A DNA stretch of 64,000 nucleotides from Gemmatimonadota bacterium (GTDB lineage: Bacteria > Gemmatimonadota > Gemmatimonadetes > Longimicrobiales > Gaopeijiaceae): NCBI GenBank assembly GCA_036986155.1, contig BTRA01000002.1:2119-66118 (forward strand), in the 5' to 3' direction. The notes under the pieces are model-generated. The model ran no database searches, was not told the origin of the DNA, and saw only the letters and a program-made list of their open reading frames with translations. Each line of letters begins with the position of its first letter. The first letter of the stretch is position 1. Both the position numbers and the translations under genes were made by a program. This document shows, in pieces, positions 38,893 through 61,777 of this stretch.

Positions 38893-40861
38893 TCAACCTC
38901 CCGGTGCCACAACCTCGACAGGCTGCCGAGAGTTCAAGGGCGTGCCGTTGAATGTCACGCTTCTGATTGAGAACACGAGTGATTCCGGTCTCCGCGGGGT
39001 GATGAGAACGTCGTAGATTTCTCCGACTCGGACCGTCTGCTGCGAGGGAACCGTCTCTTGTAGGTGCTCGGGCAGTTCGGCACCGTCCTTCGCCACCAGT
39101 GTCCATCGGTAGGGCCTACCGTCGGTCCGGAGCAATTCGAACGTCCCCGAGGGCCCGAGAGTGATGTTCATGAGTCGGAACCGGTAGGACTGGCGGGCCT
39201 CGAACTGCATCGGTGGTAGTTCTTTTCGCCCATTTACGACCGTTCCCTCCACGTTCGGGGCCGCACCGAGAATGAAGACCTTGTCGTGCTCCGGATCCCA
39301 TTCCTGGACCTTTGGTAGGACCACGATGGGCCCGTAGAGCCCCGCTCCCTGTTGCCGGATGTCGCTCATATGGGTGTGATACATGAAGCTGCCCGGGCGG
39401 GGTGGGGTGAACCGCATCTCAAAACTGTCACTCGGCATGATGGGGGGGGGTGGGCATGCCAGAATATCCGCCGACGCCAACAACGCCATCAAATGGACTT
39501 TCGATCTCGAGCCCGTGCCAGTGTATCTGGGTCGGCTCAGGGCTTCGGTTGACGACCCAAACACTGGTGGGCTCACCTTCTCGCATGATCAGGGTCGACC
39601 CGGGAAGACGCACCGAGTCGGGTGCTGGATCTTCCGGCCCCTCGGCGAGAATGGGGGAAAAAGTGCGGCGGTACGGTGAGATCGCTTTGAGCTTCGTCCC
39701 GGGGGGTGCCGGTACGGAGTCCGAGTTGACGATCAATCGCATCTGGCGCCGTGGGCGTTCATCCGGAACCCAGTCTGGCGATGGATTGACGTACATTCCC
39801 ATCATCAATCCCCCCATGCCTTCGACGACATGGGCGGCAGGGTCGTGTTGCGGCTCTCCCAGCAACTTCCGCTTGGTGACCTGTTCTCGATCGGCCGGTT
39901 GGTCGAGCGGCTTGTAGTTCGGTCCGACGTGACCGGAAATGTGGCAGTGAAAGATCCAACCCCCGGGCCGGTTGGGAGTCCAGGAAAGGGACAAAGTGGA
40001 CCCGACGGCCATTTCCTCCGTCACCGCTTGGTGTTGTTGGGACTCCCAAAAGATCTCGTCGTGGTCGTTGTCCCCTTTCGCCTCGATAGTGTAGAAGAAC
40101 CCATGAAGATGCATGGGGTGGCCACGCCCAGACGCGTTGATCAGGCGCCACCTCACCGTATCCCCCATACCGTATTCGAGACGTTTGGTATACGGCCACG
40201 GGCGGCCATTGATCGTCAAGATTGCCGGGGCGGATGGAAGCGTGCGTACGCCCAGGATCATGATAGCATCGATGGGTTCGGGCATGTCGGGACCGGTAAT
40301 CACCAGAGCGCCCGTCAGGAAGACTCCCTCTCTCTGGTTGGCGACCAGGGGAGGAATGTCCACGGGACGTCGGGGTGAGACCCCCCCGACCCGAGCCCAG
40401 TAGTAGAACGTTCCCTCCGCGTCAGCGACGAATTCCTTGGCGGAGGTCTCACCGGGCCCGATGAGCCAGGGCTCCAGGGGCGTCGTTCGTCTCTCGCCCA
40501 GCCCGTGGACGATCAGGAGCGAGTCGAGCGTGTTCTCAATGGTGACATGGACTCGGGTGCCGAGCGGTGCGCGCAGGTAGGGCCCGGGAATCATCGGGTC
40601 ACCGTCCCCTTCGGCGAAGGCATAGTTCATGAGGCCCGGCTCGTCCGGACCATAGGGCCGCCAGTCGGCCTCGACGGCTTTCAACTCCACCGTGAGGACT
40701 CCATCGTGCAACTCGCCCGCGGGTGCCTCGTTGTCATGGAACCGCGCGAGCGGCAAAGACGCCGTCGCCACTGTGGTGTGGCTCGTGGGGCTTGAATGGA
40801 CCGTCGGCGCGGTGATTATGACCATACAGGACAAAGCCACCGCCGAGAGGCGAGAGTTCAT
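38893..40861 (-). pseudogene. Four-cupredoxin-domain multicopper oxidase, split by a 1-nt frameshift in a C9 (plus-strand G9) tract at 39442-39450. Either a real pseudogene or a homopolymer sequencing error
   Basis: Track ORFs 39428..41056 and 38893..39576 overlap in different frames. Copper motifs HPMHLHG and HCHISGH lie in the first ORF, HWHG lies at its end, and MYHTH lies in the second. Removing one C gives the continuous sequence ...GYSGMPTPPIMPSDSFEMRF.... The signal-peptide start MNSRLSAVALSCMVIITAP is at 40861. Confidence 0.8.
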
Positions 40862-55427: not shown

Positions 55428-56681
55428 ATGGCACTCAAAGTTGTTCTCGGATACTCCGGTGGGCTCGACACCTCTGTCGTCGTGCCGTGGCTCCGCGAGA
55501 ATTACGACGCCGAAGTCATATGTGTGGCGGCCGACGTTGGACAGCCGGGAGGGCTCGAGGGCCTGGCAGAACGGGCAGAGGCTACAGGTGCGTCTCGGTT
55601 CTTCGGGGAAGATCTCAAACGAGAGTTCGTCGAGGAATTCGTCTGGCCCACGTTGCGCTCCGGGGCGGTTTACGGCCGCAAGTATCTGCTGGGAACCTCC
55701 ATGGCGCGGCCTATCATCGCCCGCCGCATGGTCGAGATCGCGCGTTCGCTCGATGCCGATGCCCTCGCCCACGGTTGCACCGGAAAGGGTAACGACCAGG
55801 TCCGGTTCGAGCTCACCTTCATCGCACTGGCTCCCGACTTGAAAGTCATCGCTCCGTGGAGAGAGTGGGATCTTCACTCACGGGAGGAGGCCCTGGTCTA
55901 CGCCCAGGAGCGAAACATCCCGATGGATGGGGTCGATGCAAGCAAGCTCTACTCTCGGGATGAGAACCTATGGCACATCTCTCACGAAGGGGGCCCGCTC
56001 GAGGATCCGGCTTACGAACCTGATGAATCGGTCTACATGTGGACGCTCTCGCCCGAGTTGGCTCCGGACAAGCCCGAGTACGTTGAGATCGGTTTCGAGG
56101 AGGGCACGCCGGTCTCGGTGAATGGCGCCCACCTCGGCGCGGTGGCTCTCCTCACCACCTTGAATTCAATCGGGTCGCAACACGGCGTCGGCCGTATCGA
56201 TCTCGTGGAAGATCGCCTGGTGGGCATGAAGTCACGAGGATTATACGAGACGCCGGGTGGAACGATCCTCTACACCGCGCTACGAGAACTCGAGCAACTG
56301 ACGCTCGATAGGAGGGCGCTCGCCATGAAGGACGCCCTCGCGGCGCGTTACGCCGACCTCGTCTACGAAGGGTGGTGGTGGACGCCGGAACGCGAGGCGC
56401 TCGACGCGTTCGGGAATGTCCTCATGCGCACGGTCACCGGATCGGTTCGCGTCAAGCTCTACAAGGGGTCCGCGAGCGTCGTCTCTCGAACCAGCCCTCA
56501 CTCGCTGTATGATCTAGGCCTCGCCTCGTTCGGAGAGTCGGACACCTACGACCACGGGGATGCGGCTGGATTCATCAAGCTATTCGGCTTGCCGGCCCGT
56601 GTGGGTGGGGATCGCGATCGGGCCTCGGAGAACGCGCGCGAGCGGGTCAGGGAGTTGCTCGACGCTTCGGTGGGTCGGTAG
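55428..56681 (+). CDS. argG: Argininosuccinate synthase
   Basis: AYSGGLDTS-type motif ([10 protein letters not shown]), [14 protein letters not shown], and full length at 417 aa. Confidence 0.97.
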
Positions 56682-58108: not shown

Positions 58109-59131
58109 CTAGGCTTCCACCATGATCCGGCCGGCAGCTTCCGCGAACGGCCTCAAGGTTTCCATCATCTCGGCGAACTCGGGAATCGTGAGAGACTGGT
58201 CACCATCCGATACAGCCCTCTCGGGATCCGGATGGACCTCGACCAGGAGACCGTCGGCGCCTGCGGCCACGGCAGCGTAGGAGAGCGGCGCCACCAAGTC
58301 CCGCCGGCCACACGCGTGGCTGGGATCGGCAATCACGGGTAGATGCGTCTCTTTCTTCAAGACCGGGATCGCGGCCAGGTCGAACGTGTTCCTGGTTGCG
58401 GTCTCGAAGGTACGGATTCCCCTCTCGCACAGCATCACGTCCATGTTGCCTTGGCTCATCACGTATTCGGCTGCGAGGAGCAGATCCTTGATCGTCGCCG
58501 ACATGCCTCGCTTGAGAAGAACCGGACGGTGCAGTCGGCCCACTTCGGTCAGGAGCGCGAAGTTCTGCATATTGCGCGCCCCCACCTGAAGTGCGTCGGC
58601 GTAGCTCGCGACCAGTTCCACCTCGCGCGTGTCCATTACCTCGGTGACGACCGGTAGGCCCGTCTCGGCTCGCACGTCCGCGAGCACCTCGAGGCCGGCT
58701 TGGCCCATGCCCAAGAAAGAGTACGGGGACGAGCGCGGCTTGAAGGCGCCGCCTCGGAGCGCCCGAGCCCCGGCAGCGGCGACGGCCTCGGCGGTCCGGC
58801 TCATCATTTCCTTTCCCTCGACGGAGCAGGGGCCCGCGATCACGATCAGTTCGGGGCCACCCACCAGGGTGCTTCCCAACTGAATGGTCGTGGAGTCGGC
58901 CCTGAATAGGCGGCTAGCTAGCTTGTACGGGTTCATGACCGGGTGCACTGCTTCGACCCCCTGGATCGACAAGAGCGGAGCCTCGCGCAATACGGCCTCG
59001 TCCCCGATACATCCGATTACGGTGCGGGCCTCGCCCCGTGAGATGTGGGTGCGAAGTCCAAGCGCCTCCACTCGCTCACGGATGTGGTCGATCTCCTCAT
59101 CTGTCACACCCCGGCGGGTCACGATGATCAT
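58109..59131 (-). CDS. aroF: 3-deoxy-7-phosphoheptulonate (DAHP) synthase, type I-beta, with an N-terminal ferredoxin-like/ACT-type regulatory domain
   Basis: 340 aa. The N-terminal ~70 aa ([26 protein letters not shown]...) are followed by a KDO8PS-like barrel ([21 protein letters not shown]). RBS GGGAG lies 7 nt upstream. Confidence 0.93.
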
Positions 59132-59173
59132 GTGTGCACTCCCAATTCAAGGAGCCCGCCCTGGCAGGCGGGC

Positions 59174-59204
59174 AAGAAAAAAGGCCCCCGACCAGTCGGG
59201 AGCC
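59174..59204 (-). terminator. Intrinsic terminator in the aroF leader (attenuator terminator)
   Basis: On the minus strand: GGCTCCCGAC-TG-GTCGGGGGCC (10 bp including one G.U), followed by TTTTTTCTT. It lies upstream of the aroF RBS, not downstream of any gene. Confidence 0.65.
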
Positions 59205-59238
59205 CTCCTCCGCAGCGATCCGTTCGTCTAGACGGACG

Positions 59239-59307
59239 TCACCCAGGACTCCCGAGGGGGATTCGATACCAGTAATACCGGGTGGACGCTGAGCGGCGGC
59301 GATGCAT
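59239..59307 (-). CDS. Candidate 22-aa leader peptide MHRRRSASTRYYWYRIPLGSPG (Tyr-Tyr-Trp-Tyr regulatory codons)
   Basis: ATG 59307 to TGA 59239-59241. It has four consecutive aromatic codons, TAT TAC TGG TAT (59277-59266). Its last codons overlap an antiterminator arm. No SD is seen, though a TTGACA at 59343-59338 could give a near-leaderless transcript. Confidence 0.55.
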   Translation of the reverse strand: MHRRRSASTRYYWYRIPLGSPG

Positions 59308-59440
59308 AGCTCGAAGTCTGCCTGGGGTGCCCCCTGGTGTCAACCAGCACGTCTGGCTTCTGCTGTGGCACGCGGATAGATTTACGGCCCCAGGATCCGA
59401 CCACGAAGCGCTCCCGTCGATCGCACTTTTGGAGGAATTG

Positions 59441-60379
59441 ATGTCCGCTGGACCTGCCGCTACAAAGGCTCCCGCCACACCCGCCATTAGCCGCCCCATC
59501 CTCGAACAACTCGACATGTCCTTGGGCAAGCGCGTGCGCCTGCACAGGCTGCTCTATGAACGAGGGCTCAAGAACGGAACCCTGCTGCTGCTCCCCATCG
59601 ACCAAGGGCTCGAGCACGGTCCCATCGACTTTTTTCCAAACCCCCCTTCGCAAGACCCCGAGTTTCAGTGGCGTCTAGCCCTGGAGGGGAACTATAACGG
59701 CGTGGCTTGTCACTATGGATTGGCCCGGAAGTACATGGCGAAGTACGCCGGGAAGGTCCCCCTGATCCTAAAGATCAACGGTAAGACCACCATTCCTTCC
59801 GATGCCGACGCGTTTTCCTCACTGACCGGAAGTGTCGAAGACGCGGTCGCCTTGGGTGCGGATGCGGTCGGCTACACGTTGTATGTCGGTTCGCCCCGGC
59901 AGGACGAGGACATCCAGCAGTTGGCCATGGTTCGTGAGGACTGCGACAAATACAACATGCCGCTGATCGTCTGGTCGTACCCCCGCGGAAGCGCGATCGA
60001 GGAGAAGGGTGGACGAGATAGCCTCTACGCGGTCGACTACGCGGCCCGCGTTGCTCTCGAAATGGGTGCCGACGTCGTCAAGCTGAACATGCCGAAGCAT
60101 GGCGACAAAGATGCCGAGCAGCCGGGAGAGTATGCCGGAATAGACTTCGACTACGGGGAAGGCGCGCGCCGAGTGGTCCACTCTGCAGGGCGCTGCATGG
60201 TACTCTTCAGCGGGGGAAGCAAGCTCGGCGACGAAGATCTTCTCCACAAGGTCCGTACGGCCATGGAGGCTGGCGCGACGGGGCTGATCTTCGGGCGCAA
60301 CATGTGGCAGCGACCTTACGACGAGGCCCTCGCCGCGACCACGAGAGTCATGGATGTGCTTAGGGAGTTCGGCACCTGA
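59441..60379 (+). CDS. Class I fructose-bisphosphate aldolase (FbaB/DhnA family)
   Basis: ATG 59441 is preceded by GGAGGA. Blocks LLPIDQGLEHGP, ILKINGKT and the Schiff-base region ADVVKLNMPK are present. Confidence 0.88.
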   Translation: MSAGPAATKAPATPAISRPILEQLDMSLGKRVRLHRLLYERGLKNGTLLLLPIDQGLEHGPIDFFPNPPSQDPEFQWRLALEGNYNGVACHYGLARKYMAKYAGKVPLILKINGKTTIPSDADAFSSLTGSVEDAVALGADAVGYTLYVGSPRQDEDIQQLAMVREDCDKYNMPLIVWSYPRGSAIEEKGGRDSLYAVDYAARVALEMGADVVKLNMPKHGDKDAEQPGEYAGIDFDYGEGARRVVHSAGRCMVLFSGGSKLGDEDLLHKVRTAMEAGATGLIFGRNMWQRPYDEALAATTRVMDVLREFGT

Positions 60380-60410
60380 TCCAATCCACGCGGGCCCGGA
60401 CCCATCGCCC

Positions 60411-61109
60411 ATGATCGAGACGGGACCGCTCAAGAGGGCCGCAGCACTTCGCGCTCTCGATGACGTGAGCGAGGGGATGGTTCTCGGACTAGGTACGGGG
60501 AGCACCGTGGCACACTTTCTGGTCGGCCTCGCCGAGTTCCTTCGTGTAGGTCGCTTGAGGGAAGTCGTGGGTGTCCCGACATCCCTGTGGACTGCGGACC
60601 GATGCCGGGAGTTGGGAATTCCCCTGACCTCGCTTGCGTCCCACCCTATCCTGGACGTTACGGTCGATGGGACAGACGAGGTCGATCCTTCCGTCAACCT
60701 CATCAAGGGACTGGGTGGAGCGCTACTCCGCGAGAAGATGGTAGCCCAGGCAGCGCTTCGGATGGTGATCATCGCCGATCAGACCAAGGTCGTTAACAGG
60801 CTCGGTGAGAGGGCTCCGCTCCCGGTGGAGGTCGTCCAATTCGGCTGGGAGGTTCACCAACACGCCTTCCACGAGATGGGGGCGCACCCGTCCTTACGGA
60901 CACGCTCCGACGGCCAACCTCTGACCACAGACAACGGCAACTACATCATCGATTGCCGATTTCCGGGTGGCATCGAGGACCCTAAGGCACTCGAAGCCGA
61001 GCTCGCCGCACGCGCGGGCGTGGTGGAGTCGGGGCTCTTCCTCGGGATGGCTGAGAAGGCCTATGTCGCCGATGTAGGTGGGGTCACGGTCATGGAGAGA
61101 ACGCCATGA
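60411..61109 (+). CDS. rpiA: Ribose-5-phosphate isomerase A
   Basis: GLGTGSTV, DGTDEVD, KGLGGALLREK. Confidence 0.93.
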   Translation: MIETGPLKRAAALRALDDVSEGMVLGLGTGSTVAHFLVGLAEFLRVGRLREVVGVPTSLWTADRCRELGIPLTSLASHPILDVTVDGTDEVDPSVNLIKGLGGALLREKMVAQAALRMVIIADQTKVVNRLGERAPLPVEVVQFGWEVHQHAFHEMGAHPSLRTRSDGQPLTTDNGNYIIDCRFPGGIEDPKALEAELAARAGVVESGLFLGMAEKAYVADVGGVTVMERTP

Positions 61110-61777
61110 GCGTTCTGATCGCGCCCTCGATCCTTTCGGCCGATTTTGGCCGACTCGCGGACGATGTGCGTGAAGCCGTGGACGCGGGAGCAGACTGGAT
61201 CCACGTGGATGTGATGGACGGACACTTCGTGCCCAATATCACGATTGGCCCCGGGGTGACCAGGGCCGTGCGGGCGGCGACTGATGTACCCGTCGACGTG
61301 CATCTGATGATCGAACGACCCGGTTTGTATATCGACGCGTTCGCCGAGGCCGGTGCCGACGTGATCACCGTCCATCAAGAGGCCTGCCCGCATCTGCACC
61401 GGACCATTCAACAGATCCGGGAGGCAGGCGTGAGGGCTGGCGTTGCGATCAACCCGGCGACGCCGGTCGAAACGCTATCGGAAATCCTCGACTACGTGGA
61501 CCTGGTTCTTGTCATGACCGTAAACCCGGGATTCGGTGGTCAGGCCTACCTCCATTCGAGCACCGACAAGGTCGCACGGGTGCGAGATTCGCTCGCCGCA
61601 GCCGGGCGATCCGACGTCGACGTCGAAGTGGACGGTGGAGTGGACGCCAGCACAGCACCTTCGGCGGTGAACGCAGGAGCCAACGTCCTCGTCGCCGGGT
61701 CGGCGGTGTTCGACCATCCCGAAGGGATCACCCTCGCCATCGGGGCCTTGCGGGACGCGGTTACGCAGGGGCCCTGA
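61106..61777 (+). CDS. rpe: Ribulose-phosphate 3-epimerase
   Basis: APSILSADF, HVDVMDGHFVPN, VMTVNPGFGGQ. The ATGA overlap with rpiA indicates coupling. Confidence 0.96.
   Translation: MSVLIAPSILSADFGRLADDVREAVDAGADWIHVDVMDGHFVPNITIGPGVTRAVRAATDVPVDVHLMIERPGLYIDAFAEAGADVITVHQEACPHLHRTIQQIREAGVRAGVAINPATPVETLSEILDYVDLVLVMTVNPGFGGQAYLHSSTDKVARVRDSLAAAGRSDVDVEVDGGVDASTAPSAVNAGANVLVAGSAVFDHPEGITLAIGALRDAVTQGP

Follow-up and report, generated by a model that had tools for sequence, protein, structure and literature searches.

A probable ribosome-mediated attenuator with a leaderless-type start upstream of the DAHP synthase gene aroF in a Gemmatimonadota bacterium

How does a bacterium of a poorly studied phylum adjust the first step of aromatic amino acid synthesis to its supply of aromatic amino acids? 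The question is raised by a stretch of 64,000 nucleotides (nt) from a Gemmatimonadota bacterium (contig BTRA01000002.1, assembly GCA_036986155.1), which we analyzed as a whole and refer to as the window. On its minus strand lies aroF, which encodes a type I-beta 3-deoxy-D-arabino-heptulosonate 7-phosphate (DAHP) synthase, and the spacer upstream of aroF carries a short open reading frame (ORF) with Tyr and Trp codons followed by a terminator-like hairpin. Our analysis assigns a probability of roughly 0.8 to the reading that this aroF leader is a ribosome-mediated transcription attenuator, carried by a leaderless transcript, that senses the charging of the tRNAs for Tyr and Trp and possibly also Phe. 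The sequence contains an ORF with codons for products of the pathway, a terminator between this ORF and aroF, and a suitably placed antiterminator, one strand of which is also used by the terminator. From these features we infer the start of transcription, the leaderless translation, the choice between termination and read-through and the response to amino acids.

The identity of the controlled gene is clear from a Pfam search, which found PF00793 (E = 5.5e-80) and, at the N terminus, the ferredoxin-like regulatory domain PF18152 (E = 3.5e-20); an initial annotation, made from the letters of this DNA, had expected an allosteric-type domain at this end. The homologues came from Gemmatimonadota/Longimicrobiales metagenome-assembled genomes, were named 3-deoxy-7-phosphoheptulonate synthase and reached a top identity of 91%. 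The divergent gene encodes an aldolase of the DeoC/LacD family, and its likeliest start, the ATG at 59441 preceded by GGAGG, gives a spacer to aroF of 309 nt, the length named in the initial annotation. Given that the leader element lies between divergent genes and 5' of the aroF ribosome-binding site, its hairpin is not the terminator of another gene, as had been argued before. The features on which the argument depends are as follows.

58109 to 59131, minus strand: aroF, type I-beta DAHP synthase with an N-terminal ferredoxin-like regulatory domain (Pfam and homologue names)
59338 to 59343, minus strand: -35 box TTGACA (sequence; perfect at an equal distance from the ATG in 18 of 23 Gemmatimonadota loci)
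59315 to 59320, minus strand: -10 box CAGACT (NANNNT), 17 nt 3' of the -35 box and 7 nt 5' of the leader ATG
59239 to 59307, minus strand: leader ORF of 22 codons plus TGA, MHRRRSASTRYYWYRIPLGSPG (sequence; equivalents in 22 related loci)
59266 to 59277, minus strand: regulatory codons UAU UAC UGG UAU, Tyr Tyr Trp Tyr (sequence; YWY kept in the closest relatives)
59245 to 59255, minus strand: antiterminator 5' strand (segment 2), UCGGGAGUCC(U), in the last codons of the leader ORF (RNAduplex, folding and covariation)
59196 to 59205, minus strand: segment 3, serving both as 5' arm of the terminator and as 3' strand of the antiterminator, GGGCUCCCGA (sequence, folding and covariation)
59183 to 59191, minus strand: terminator 3' arm (segment 4), UCGGGGGCC (folding; covariation in 23 loci)
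59174 to 59182, minus strand: U-tract UUUUUUCUU (sequence; a T-run follows the hairpin in 23 of 23 loci)
59139 to 59143, minus strand: aroF Shine-Dalgarno sequence GGGAG (sequence; aroF ATG at 59131)

The leader ORF begins with the ATG at 59307, ends with the TGA at 59241-59239 and has no Shine-Dalgarno sequence before its ATG. Its 22 codons and its four successive aromatic codons were found where the initial annotation had placed them. Runs of at least four aromatic residues occurred only 4 times in the 128,000 residues of the six-frame translation of the window, with YYWY among them. The remaining runs (40408 on the minus strand, 5436 and 63448 on the plus strand) were rejected as leader ORFs; the one at 40408 sits in an ORF of 542 amino acids.

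The terminator stem pairs GGCUCCCGA (59204-59196) with UCGGGGGCC (59191-59183) in a GC-rich helix of 9 bp with a CUGG loop (-16.2 kcal/mol, z = -3.2). The hairpin and U-tract described earlier were therefore present, but the proposed stem of 10 bp was not, given that it would force an impossible loop of 2 nt; the actual stem has 9 bp and a loop of 4 nt. We scanned both strands of the 64 kb for stems of 8 bp or more that contain a minimum of 6 G-C pairs and are followed by 9 bases of which 6 or more are U, and the leader terminator was the sole site returned. It was not detected by a standard terminator scan, probably because the stem can extend into the U-tract (GGAGGAG with UUUUUUC).

The 5' arm of this terminator has a second possible partner inside the leader ORF. 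The alternative pairing of UCGGGAGUCC (59255-59246) with GGGCUCCCGA (59205-59196) comprises 10 bp with one G.U, as first proposed, and was extended to 11 bp by RNAfold, in which an 11-bp helix closes an antiterminator domain (59256-59196) of -29.3 kcal/mol. The RNAduplex energy of the two strands was -16.2 kcal/mol, compared to -10.8 +/- 2.2 kcal/mol for shuffles. In the window, 9 nt separate the last aromatic codon from the antiterminator strand. The domain is capped by a small hairpin, present as it had been described, and a possible further strand lies upstream.

59218 to 59237, minus strand: small internal hairpin GUCCGU/ACGGAU, 6 bp and weak (-5.9 kcal/mol), capping the antiterminator domain
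59278 to 59289, minus strand: possible segment 1 (anti-antiterminator strand), pairing with 59246-59236 in the full-length minimum free energy (MFE) fold

Comparison with related aroF loci, collected by scans of genome and metagenome collections (with few Gemmatimonadota loci among the matches listed) and by 10 exact-protein look-ups, provided the evidence that carries this reading. At least 22 further Gemmatimonadota aroF loci, designated here by L numbers, have the same upstream layout, and 23 loci including the window were analyzed; L161 was left out given the run of N across its leader. The shared layout consists of TTGACA (perfect in 18/23), 17 nt, NANNNT, 6 to 7 nt and an ATG or GTG without a Shine-Dalgarno sequence. 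It continues with an ORF of 22 to 37 codons in which 3 to 7 Phe, Tyr or Trp codons cluster around codons 5 to 21, then a GC-rich hairpin with a T-run that lies 20 to 63 nt 5' of the aroF ATG on the same strand, and aroF follows with its own Shine-Dalgarno sequence. Examples of the leader peptides of the relatives are MIRRHSASTRKYWYRLLTGSPG, MNLTRSWYRYGWYAPSGVQGPCMPAP, MTRATAYRYYYYFATRLTGRGWSATR and MRHTSAALFTFAFYFGTSGGRGRSGVRS. The aromatic codons are specific to the reading frame, with 119 in the ATG frame of the 23 leaders compared to 10 and 31 in the other two frames, and aromatic residues make up 19.9% of the leader peptides against a background of 5.2% (Tyr 61, Phe 31, Trp 27). The two closest relatives (91% and 88% AroF identity) retain YWY-R while the flanking residues differ, and L162 has a synonymous UAC-to-UAU change in its leader.

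Both helices are maintained by compensatory changes in these loci. In a plain MAFFT alignment, 98.5% of the cells of the terminator helix were paired, and 6 of its 9 pairs were changed on both sides (25 cells); the observed value was reached by 0 of 500 shuffles, and slid registers fell to 32 to 63% paired. For the antiterminator, scored on the same kind of unrefined alignment, 75% of the cells were paired and 5/9 pairs were changed on both sides, with a score matched by none of 500 shuffles and slid registers at 35 to 57%. The terminator 5' arms fall into nine classes (GGCUCCCGA, GCUCCCGGA, GCCCCCGAC, CCCCCGGUU, CGACCCGUG, GGCCCGUGC, GCCCUCGCC, CCCUCGUCA and GGCCCCUGU), and each leader favors its own arm: the summed energy across the nine classes was -138.7 kcal/mol for own arms compared to -105.4 +/- 8.0 kcal/mol for permuted arms (p = 5e-5). 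The best complement of the terminator 5' arm falls inside the leader ORF in all 23 loci, and in 14 of them it pairs more stably than dinucleotide shuffles do (p <= 0.03). The gap between the last aromatic codon and the antiterminator strand ranges from 3 to 23 nt, with a median of about 10. Most relatives also have a hairpin at the position of the internal hairpin, often with the stop codon of the ORF in its loop, as judged by eye. The recurrence of the aromatic mini-ORF and of both helices in orthologous upstream regions, which the initial annotation had named as a check, was thus borne out in 22 other Gemmatimonadota loci.

These data also bear on whether chance alone could have brought the ORF, the hairpin and their complementarity together in a spacer rich in G and C. 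DNA of 63% GC commonly contains short ORFs and GC-rich hairpins, and the fold of the whole leader was no more stable than that of shuffled sequences (z = -1.17), as a chance origin would allow. Against it stand the rarity of the features in the window, the frame-specific codons, the compensatory changes and the outcome of a crude detector that called a terminator lying no more than 120 nt downstream of an ORF with an aromatic cluster. Applied to 157 aroF upstream regions, it fired in 42, compared to 1/157 of the reverse complements and 0/157 of the in-gene controls. We regard a chance origin as refuted by these comparative data and give it a negligible probability.

A conditional terminator could also be set by a ligand or an RNA-binding protein, as in a riboswitch, a T-box or a TRAP- or PyrR-like system, with the ORF being incidental. 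The terminator and antiterminator alone are compatible with any mode of attenuation, and the genes for aromatic amino acids of Firmicutes are under T-box and TRAP control, according to the references given in PMC1262725 and to what is outlined in PMC3064811. Those systems share with the aroF leader the conditional premature termination in aromatic-gene leaders in response to tRNA charging or Trp, but their sensor is an uncharged tRNA or a (G/U)AG-binding protein with no translated ORF, and neither signature was found in the window. Rfam gave 0 matches in the window at the gathering threshold, whether to RF00513 (Trp_leader), Phe_leader or another amino-acid leader family, and only one tRNA in 20 related loci; at E <= 10, the region 59050-59500 returned sub-threshold noise and nothing relevant. 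The T-box model RF00230 had no match, and the roughly 125 nt from the predicted start to the terminator are too short for a T-box, which takes about 200 nt or more; an array of (G/U)AG repeats is likewise absent. The 50 to 70 nt 5' of the antiterminator strand hold no conserved structure or repeat, and what is conserved instead is the constant spacing between the promoter and an in-frame ATG, together with the frame-specific aromatic codons. Although the untranslated RNA prefers the antiterminator in silico, as would be the case where a factor promotes termination, we consider such a sensor improbable.

The region 59307-59174 could instead be a stand-alone small gene, for a micropeptide or a trans-acting small RNA, with aroF transcribed separately. 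A strong promoter precedes its short ORF, its terminator looks efficient, and trans-acting attenuator RNAs and leader peptides are known in Sinorhizobium (rnTrpL and peTrpL, as outlined in PMC6614838 and PMC7298713). Yet the unit is always found immediately 5' of aroF, on the same strand and 20 to 63 nt away, and a consensus scan found no promoter-like site between the two. The peptides are conserved only in their aromatic richness and in the residues dictated by RNA pairing, and the covariation of the 3' end of the ORF with the terminator arm would have no role in a simple small gene. A separate gene is therefore very improbable, while a trans role on top of attenuation is possible.

If the leader is an attenuator, the position of the ribosome should determine which helix forms. 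We folded the window transcript, ended just before the terminator 3' arm, while keeping the bases from -15 to +12 nt around the A-site codon masked by a ribosome. In these folds, the terminator 5' arm was sequestered with a probability of 0.99 when the ribosome occupied the first aromatic codon and 0.98 when it occupied the last, compared to 0.38 for a ribosome at the stop codon and 0.85 with no ribosome. For the window, this supports the earlier proposal that a stalled ribosome would free the antiterminator strand. The companion proposal, that a ribosome at the stop codon would allow termination, agrees with the value of 0.38 in the window but is not general, given that parking at the stop codon is specific to its clade. 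In most relatives, the ORF extends 13 to 23 nt beyond the antiterminator strand, often to a UAG located in the internal hairpin loop, whereas in the window clade the earlier UGA (59241-59239) stops it 4 nt after that strand. The window retains the …CUAGA… loop at 59226-59230 (minus strand), and the UAG at this place ends the ORF in L166, L167 and L001. By this comparison, the stop position is shifted in the window clade and the RNA elements are retained. The footprint modeling discriminated well in the window clade, L006, L081, L164 and L168. The general principle would be that an unhindered ribosome passes over and masks the antiterminator strand.

In the mechanism that we propose, transcription would start at, or 1 to 2 bases from, the leader AUG at 59307, and a ribosome would initiate at the leaderless 5' end and trail RNA polymerase at a short distance. 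With an ample supply of charged tRNA-Tyr and tRNA-Trp, the ribosome would cross UAU UAC UGG UAU, reach the end of the ORF and cover UCGGGAGUCC, so that GGGCUCCCGA would stay free until its partner at 59191-59183 has been made. The 9-bp hairpin with its U-tract would then form, and transcription would stop at about 59174-59182, 43 to 51 nt 5' of the aroF ATG. Under a shortage of Tyr- or Trp-tRNA, the ribosome would stall on the aromatic codons with its front edge about 9 to 12 nt downstream, just short of 59255. The exposed 59255-59246 would pair with 59205-59196 upon emergence of the latter, forming the antiterminator domain (-29 kcal/mol), and with the terminator blocked the polymerase would continue into aroF. 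This transcriptional control would be added to the allosteric control expected from the ferredoxin-like domain.

The leader mRNA is most likely leaderless, with its 5' end at or beside the A of the ATG, because the ATG lies 7 nt after the -10 hexamer, lacks a Shine-Dalgarno sequence and keeps this geometry in 23 loci (-35 box, 17 nt, -10 box, 6 to 7 nt, ATG). A search of the 64-kb window for other leaderless-type promoters gave two weak candidates.

Several observations weigh against attenuation from a leaderless transcript as we propose it. The -10 box CAGACT is weak, matching TATAAT at 3 of 6 positions, and neither this box nor a promoter of the leader was called by a consensus promoter scan; to our knowledge, leaderless translation is undocumented for Gemmatimonadota. 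The untranslated window RNA favors the antiterminator (0.85) and would thus tend to read through, unlike the behavior of E. coli trp. Footprint modeling discriminated poorly where the ORF runs 13 to 23 nt past the antiterminator strand, and the case for the family as a whole does not rest on it. A helix of the 1:2 type (59289-59278/59246-59236) appeared only in the full-length MFE fold, was absent from folds of truncated transcripts and was inconsistent across loci, so that folding could not establish a conserved 1:2 anti-antiterminator across the loci; the unremarkable stability of the whole leader fold belongs here as well. Finally, L165, whose AroF is 80% identical, keeps the promoter (TTGACA-17-GACGAT) but lacks both a leader ORF and a terminator (L165:371-700). 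L165 may represent a natural loss of the attenuator, and it indicates that the device is dispensable. The element was also missing at L012, where aroF follows another gene.

An additional hairpin lies between the U-tract and the aroF ribosome-binding site, as the initial annotation had reported.

59154 to 59173, minus strand: second hairpin GCCCGCCU/GGGCGGGC, accessory (8 bp, -16.5 kcal/mol, z = -3.3)

This hairpin, directly 3' of the U-tract, is kept in the two closest relatives (L164 and L162), where C-to-U changes preserve the pairing. Unrelated hairpins occupy the site in L166, L167, L168 and L010, and about half of the loci have none at all. On this distribution, we take the second hairpin to be lineage-specific and not a core part of the element. 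It might affect mRNA stability, Shine-Dalgarno access or pausing, and the CUCC bases that follow it show weak predicted pairing with GGGA of the aroF Shine-Dalgarno sequence. These features would suit a control that acts mainly on translation or mRNA stability, in which leader translation, the second hairpin and the CUCC/GGGA pairing gate the aroF Shine-Dalgarno sequence; the hairpin is stable and retained in close relatives, and mycobacterial leaderless Cys-rich short ORFs attenuate downstream expression, as far as the preprint describes them (bioRxiv 10.1101/834739). However, the second hairpin and the Shine-Dalgarno pairing are missing in about half of the loci, while the terminator and U-tract are present in all, and intrinsic termination is characterized by just such a GC-rich stem with a U-tract directly behind it. 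We therefore give control at this level the same slight probability as a separate small gene and continue with transcription attenuation as the preferred explanation.

As we interpret it, the aroF leader would work by the same logic as the trp, pheA and his leaders. Like trpL (RF00513) and pheL of Escherichia coli, it has a short ORF with codons for the end product, a terminator and antiterminator that share one strand, an antiterminator strand placed one footprint from the regulatory codons and a stop codon near that strand. Unlike them, it has no Shine-Dalgarno sequence and no consistently predicted 1:2 hairpin, whereas trpL and pheL have a 5' untranslated region bearing a Shine-Dalgarno sequence and a defined 1:2 hairpin. 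The E. coli leaders also control terminal-branch genes and respond to one amino acid each, in contrast to the mixed codons and the common first step of the window leader.

The DAHP synthase of Corynebacterium glutamicum is an E. coli-like type I-alpha enzyme without the ferredoxin-like domain. Its gene provides a precedent for an arrangement that the initial annotation was not aware of as a standard annotation for type I-beta DAHP synthases: RNA-seq revealed a leader peptide with Phe-Tyr-Phe upstream of C. glutamicum aroF (Mentz et al. 2013, PMC4046766; see also PMC11802643). According to the summary of Neshat et al. 2014 in PMC11802643, the aroR attenuator responds to Phe limitation, the only response reported there. 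The aroR-aroF system resembles the window element in having a mixed aromatic leader before a DAHP synthase gene and in that stalling raises transcription, but it belongs to Actinomycetota, its cluster is Phe-Tyr-Phe rather than Tyr/Trp without Phe, and no sequence relationship to the window leader was detected. A leader peptide made "without a ribosome binding site" is also on record for C. glutamicum ilvBNC (Morbach 2000, as cited in PMC4046766). Together with the mycobacterial polycysteine ORFs (10.1101/834739), and as far as these sources describe them, the leaderless short ORFs of Actinobacteria share with the aroF leader an ORF at the 5' end of the transcript whose codons report one class of amino acid; they differ in amino acids, phylum and targets, and the window element has a canonical intrinsic terminator. 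Our literature searches turned up an aroF attenuator in Corynebacterium only and none in Gemmatimonadota or Acidobacteriota, although subscription papers may contain an earlier mention. A 2005 survey of Actinobacteria reported nothing for Phe or Tyr genes (PMC1262725), and in a 2010 survey of premature terminators the aro genes are unmentioned and the attenuators of Acidobacteria are essentially unannotated (PMC2965389).

The positives of the crude detector outside Gemmatimonadota were mainly from Acidobacteriota/Terriglobia, with a few from unassigned metagenome contigs. The Acidobacteriota leader peptides include MNYSYWFRFSGPPN and MSHYYWFRFSKAPN, with a terminator GCCCACUC/GAGUGGGC, and by their layout, with mini-ORF, aromatic cluster, terminator and complementarity between ORF and terminator, these elements appear analogous to the Gemmatimonadota aroF leader. 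Most leaders of both phyla also have an Arg codon inside or right after the aromatic cluster, CGA at 59263-59265 (minus strand) in the window. Examples are L164, L166 and L171 and, in Acidobacteriota, L048, L050, L052, L104, L129, L137, L143, L146 and L151; the contexts include …UGG UAU CGA… and …UUU CGA UUU…, and the codon is CGA in most of the Acidobacteriota examples. CGA is not an expected preferred codon. The embedded Arg codon could reflect common descent, an enhancer of slow decoding or arrest, or a constraint at the RNA level. We tentatively propose, at somewhat less than even odds, that the window element belongs to a large uncatalogued family of leaderless or near-leaderless pan-aromatic attenuators of ferredoxin-domain type I-beta DAHP synthases. 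Such a family would integrate Tyr, Phe and Trp charging, share the Arg codon (often CGA) in the cluster and span at least two phyla (Gemmatimonadota and Acidobacteriota) as well as unassigned metagenomic lineages. A separate observation concerns L062 (Ferrimonas balearica), in which an ORF encoding MTHRSAQHIAWWWRSQT lies about 155 nt 5' of a type I-beta DAHP synthase gene, accompanied by a strong terminator (AAACCCGCUUUCG…CGAAAGCGGGUUU) and a U-run. This leader resembles a Trp-specific attenuator and would act at the same step in a gammaproteobacterium.

The surroundings of the locus add further observations. The plus-strand genes divergent from aroF (59441-61777) encode the aldolase and then rpiA and rpe, forming a pentose-phosphate cluster that could supply erythrose-4-phosphate. 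In most related contigs, the divergent neighbor of aroF is the aldolase gene or rpiA. On the other side of aroF lie argG and argH. In the window, the longest ORF of argH, which starts at 56560, shares about 120 nt with the end of argG (56560-56681, plus strand) and matches Lyase_1 from residue 64, and the genuine argH start probably lies further downstream. Under the stringent criteria given above, convergent gene ends such as that of argH and aroF (58068/58109) have no canonical intrinsic terminator, and the organism apparently seldom uses hairpin/U-tract terminators at gene ends. Given that the only canonical terminator in the 64 kb is that of the attenuator, termination by hairpin and U-tract would be used where a fast conditional decision is needed.

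In summary, comparative sequence analysis makes the aroF leader a well-supported candidate for a known type of regulator, and the concept of attenuation itself is unchanged. The points of interest are its probable leaderless start, the mixed sensing of Tyr, Trp and Phe that it would bring to the common first step and its occurrence in two little-studied phyla and absence from Rfam. Phyla such as these have almost no attenuators with an assigned function (PMC2965389). If our reading is correct, attenuation by leader peptides, and probably the leaderless translation of regulatory ORFs, would be extended to Gemmatimonadota and Acidobacteriota, and the roughly 40 aligned examples would provide a basis for an RNA family model and for better annotation of metagenome-assembled genomes. 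It would also show how, in a phylum that is poorly studied and mostly uncultured, transcription of the first committed enzyme adds to allosteric feedback in adjusting the flux into the shikimate pathway to the charging of aromatic tRNAs.

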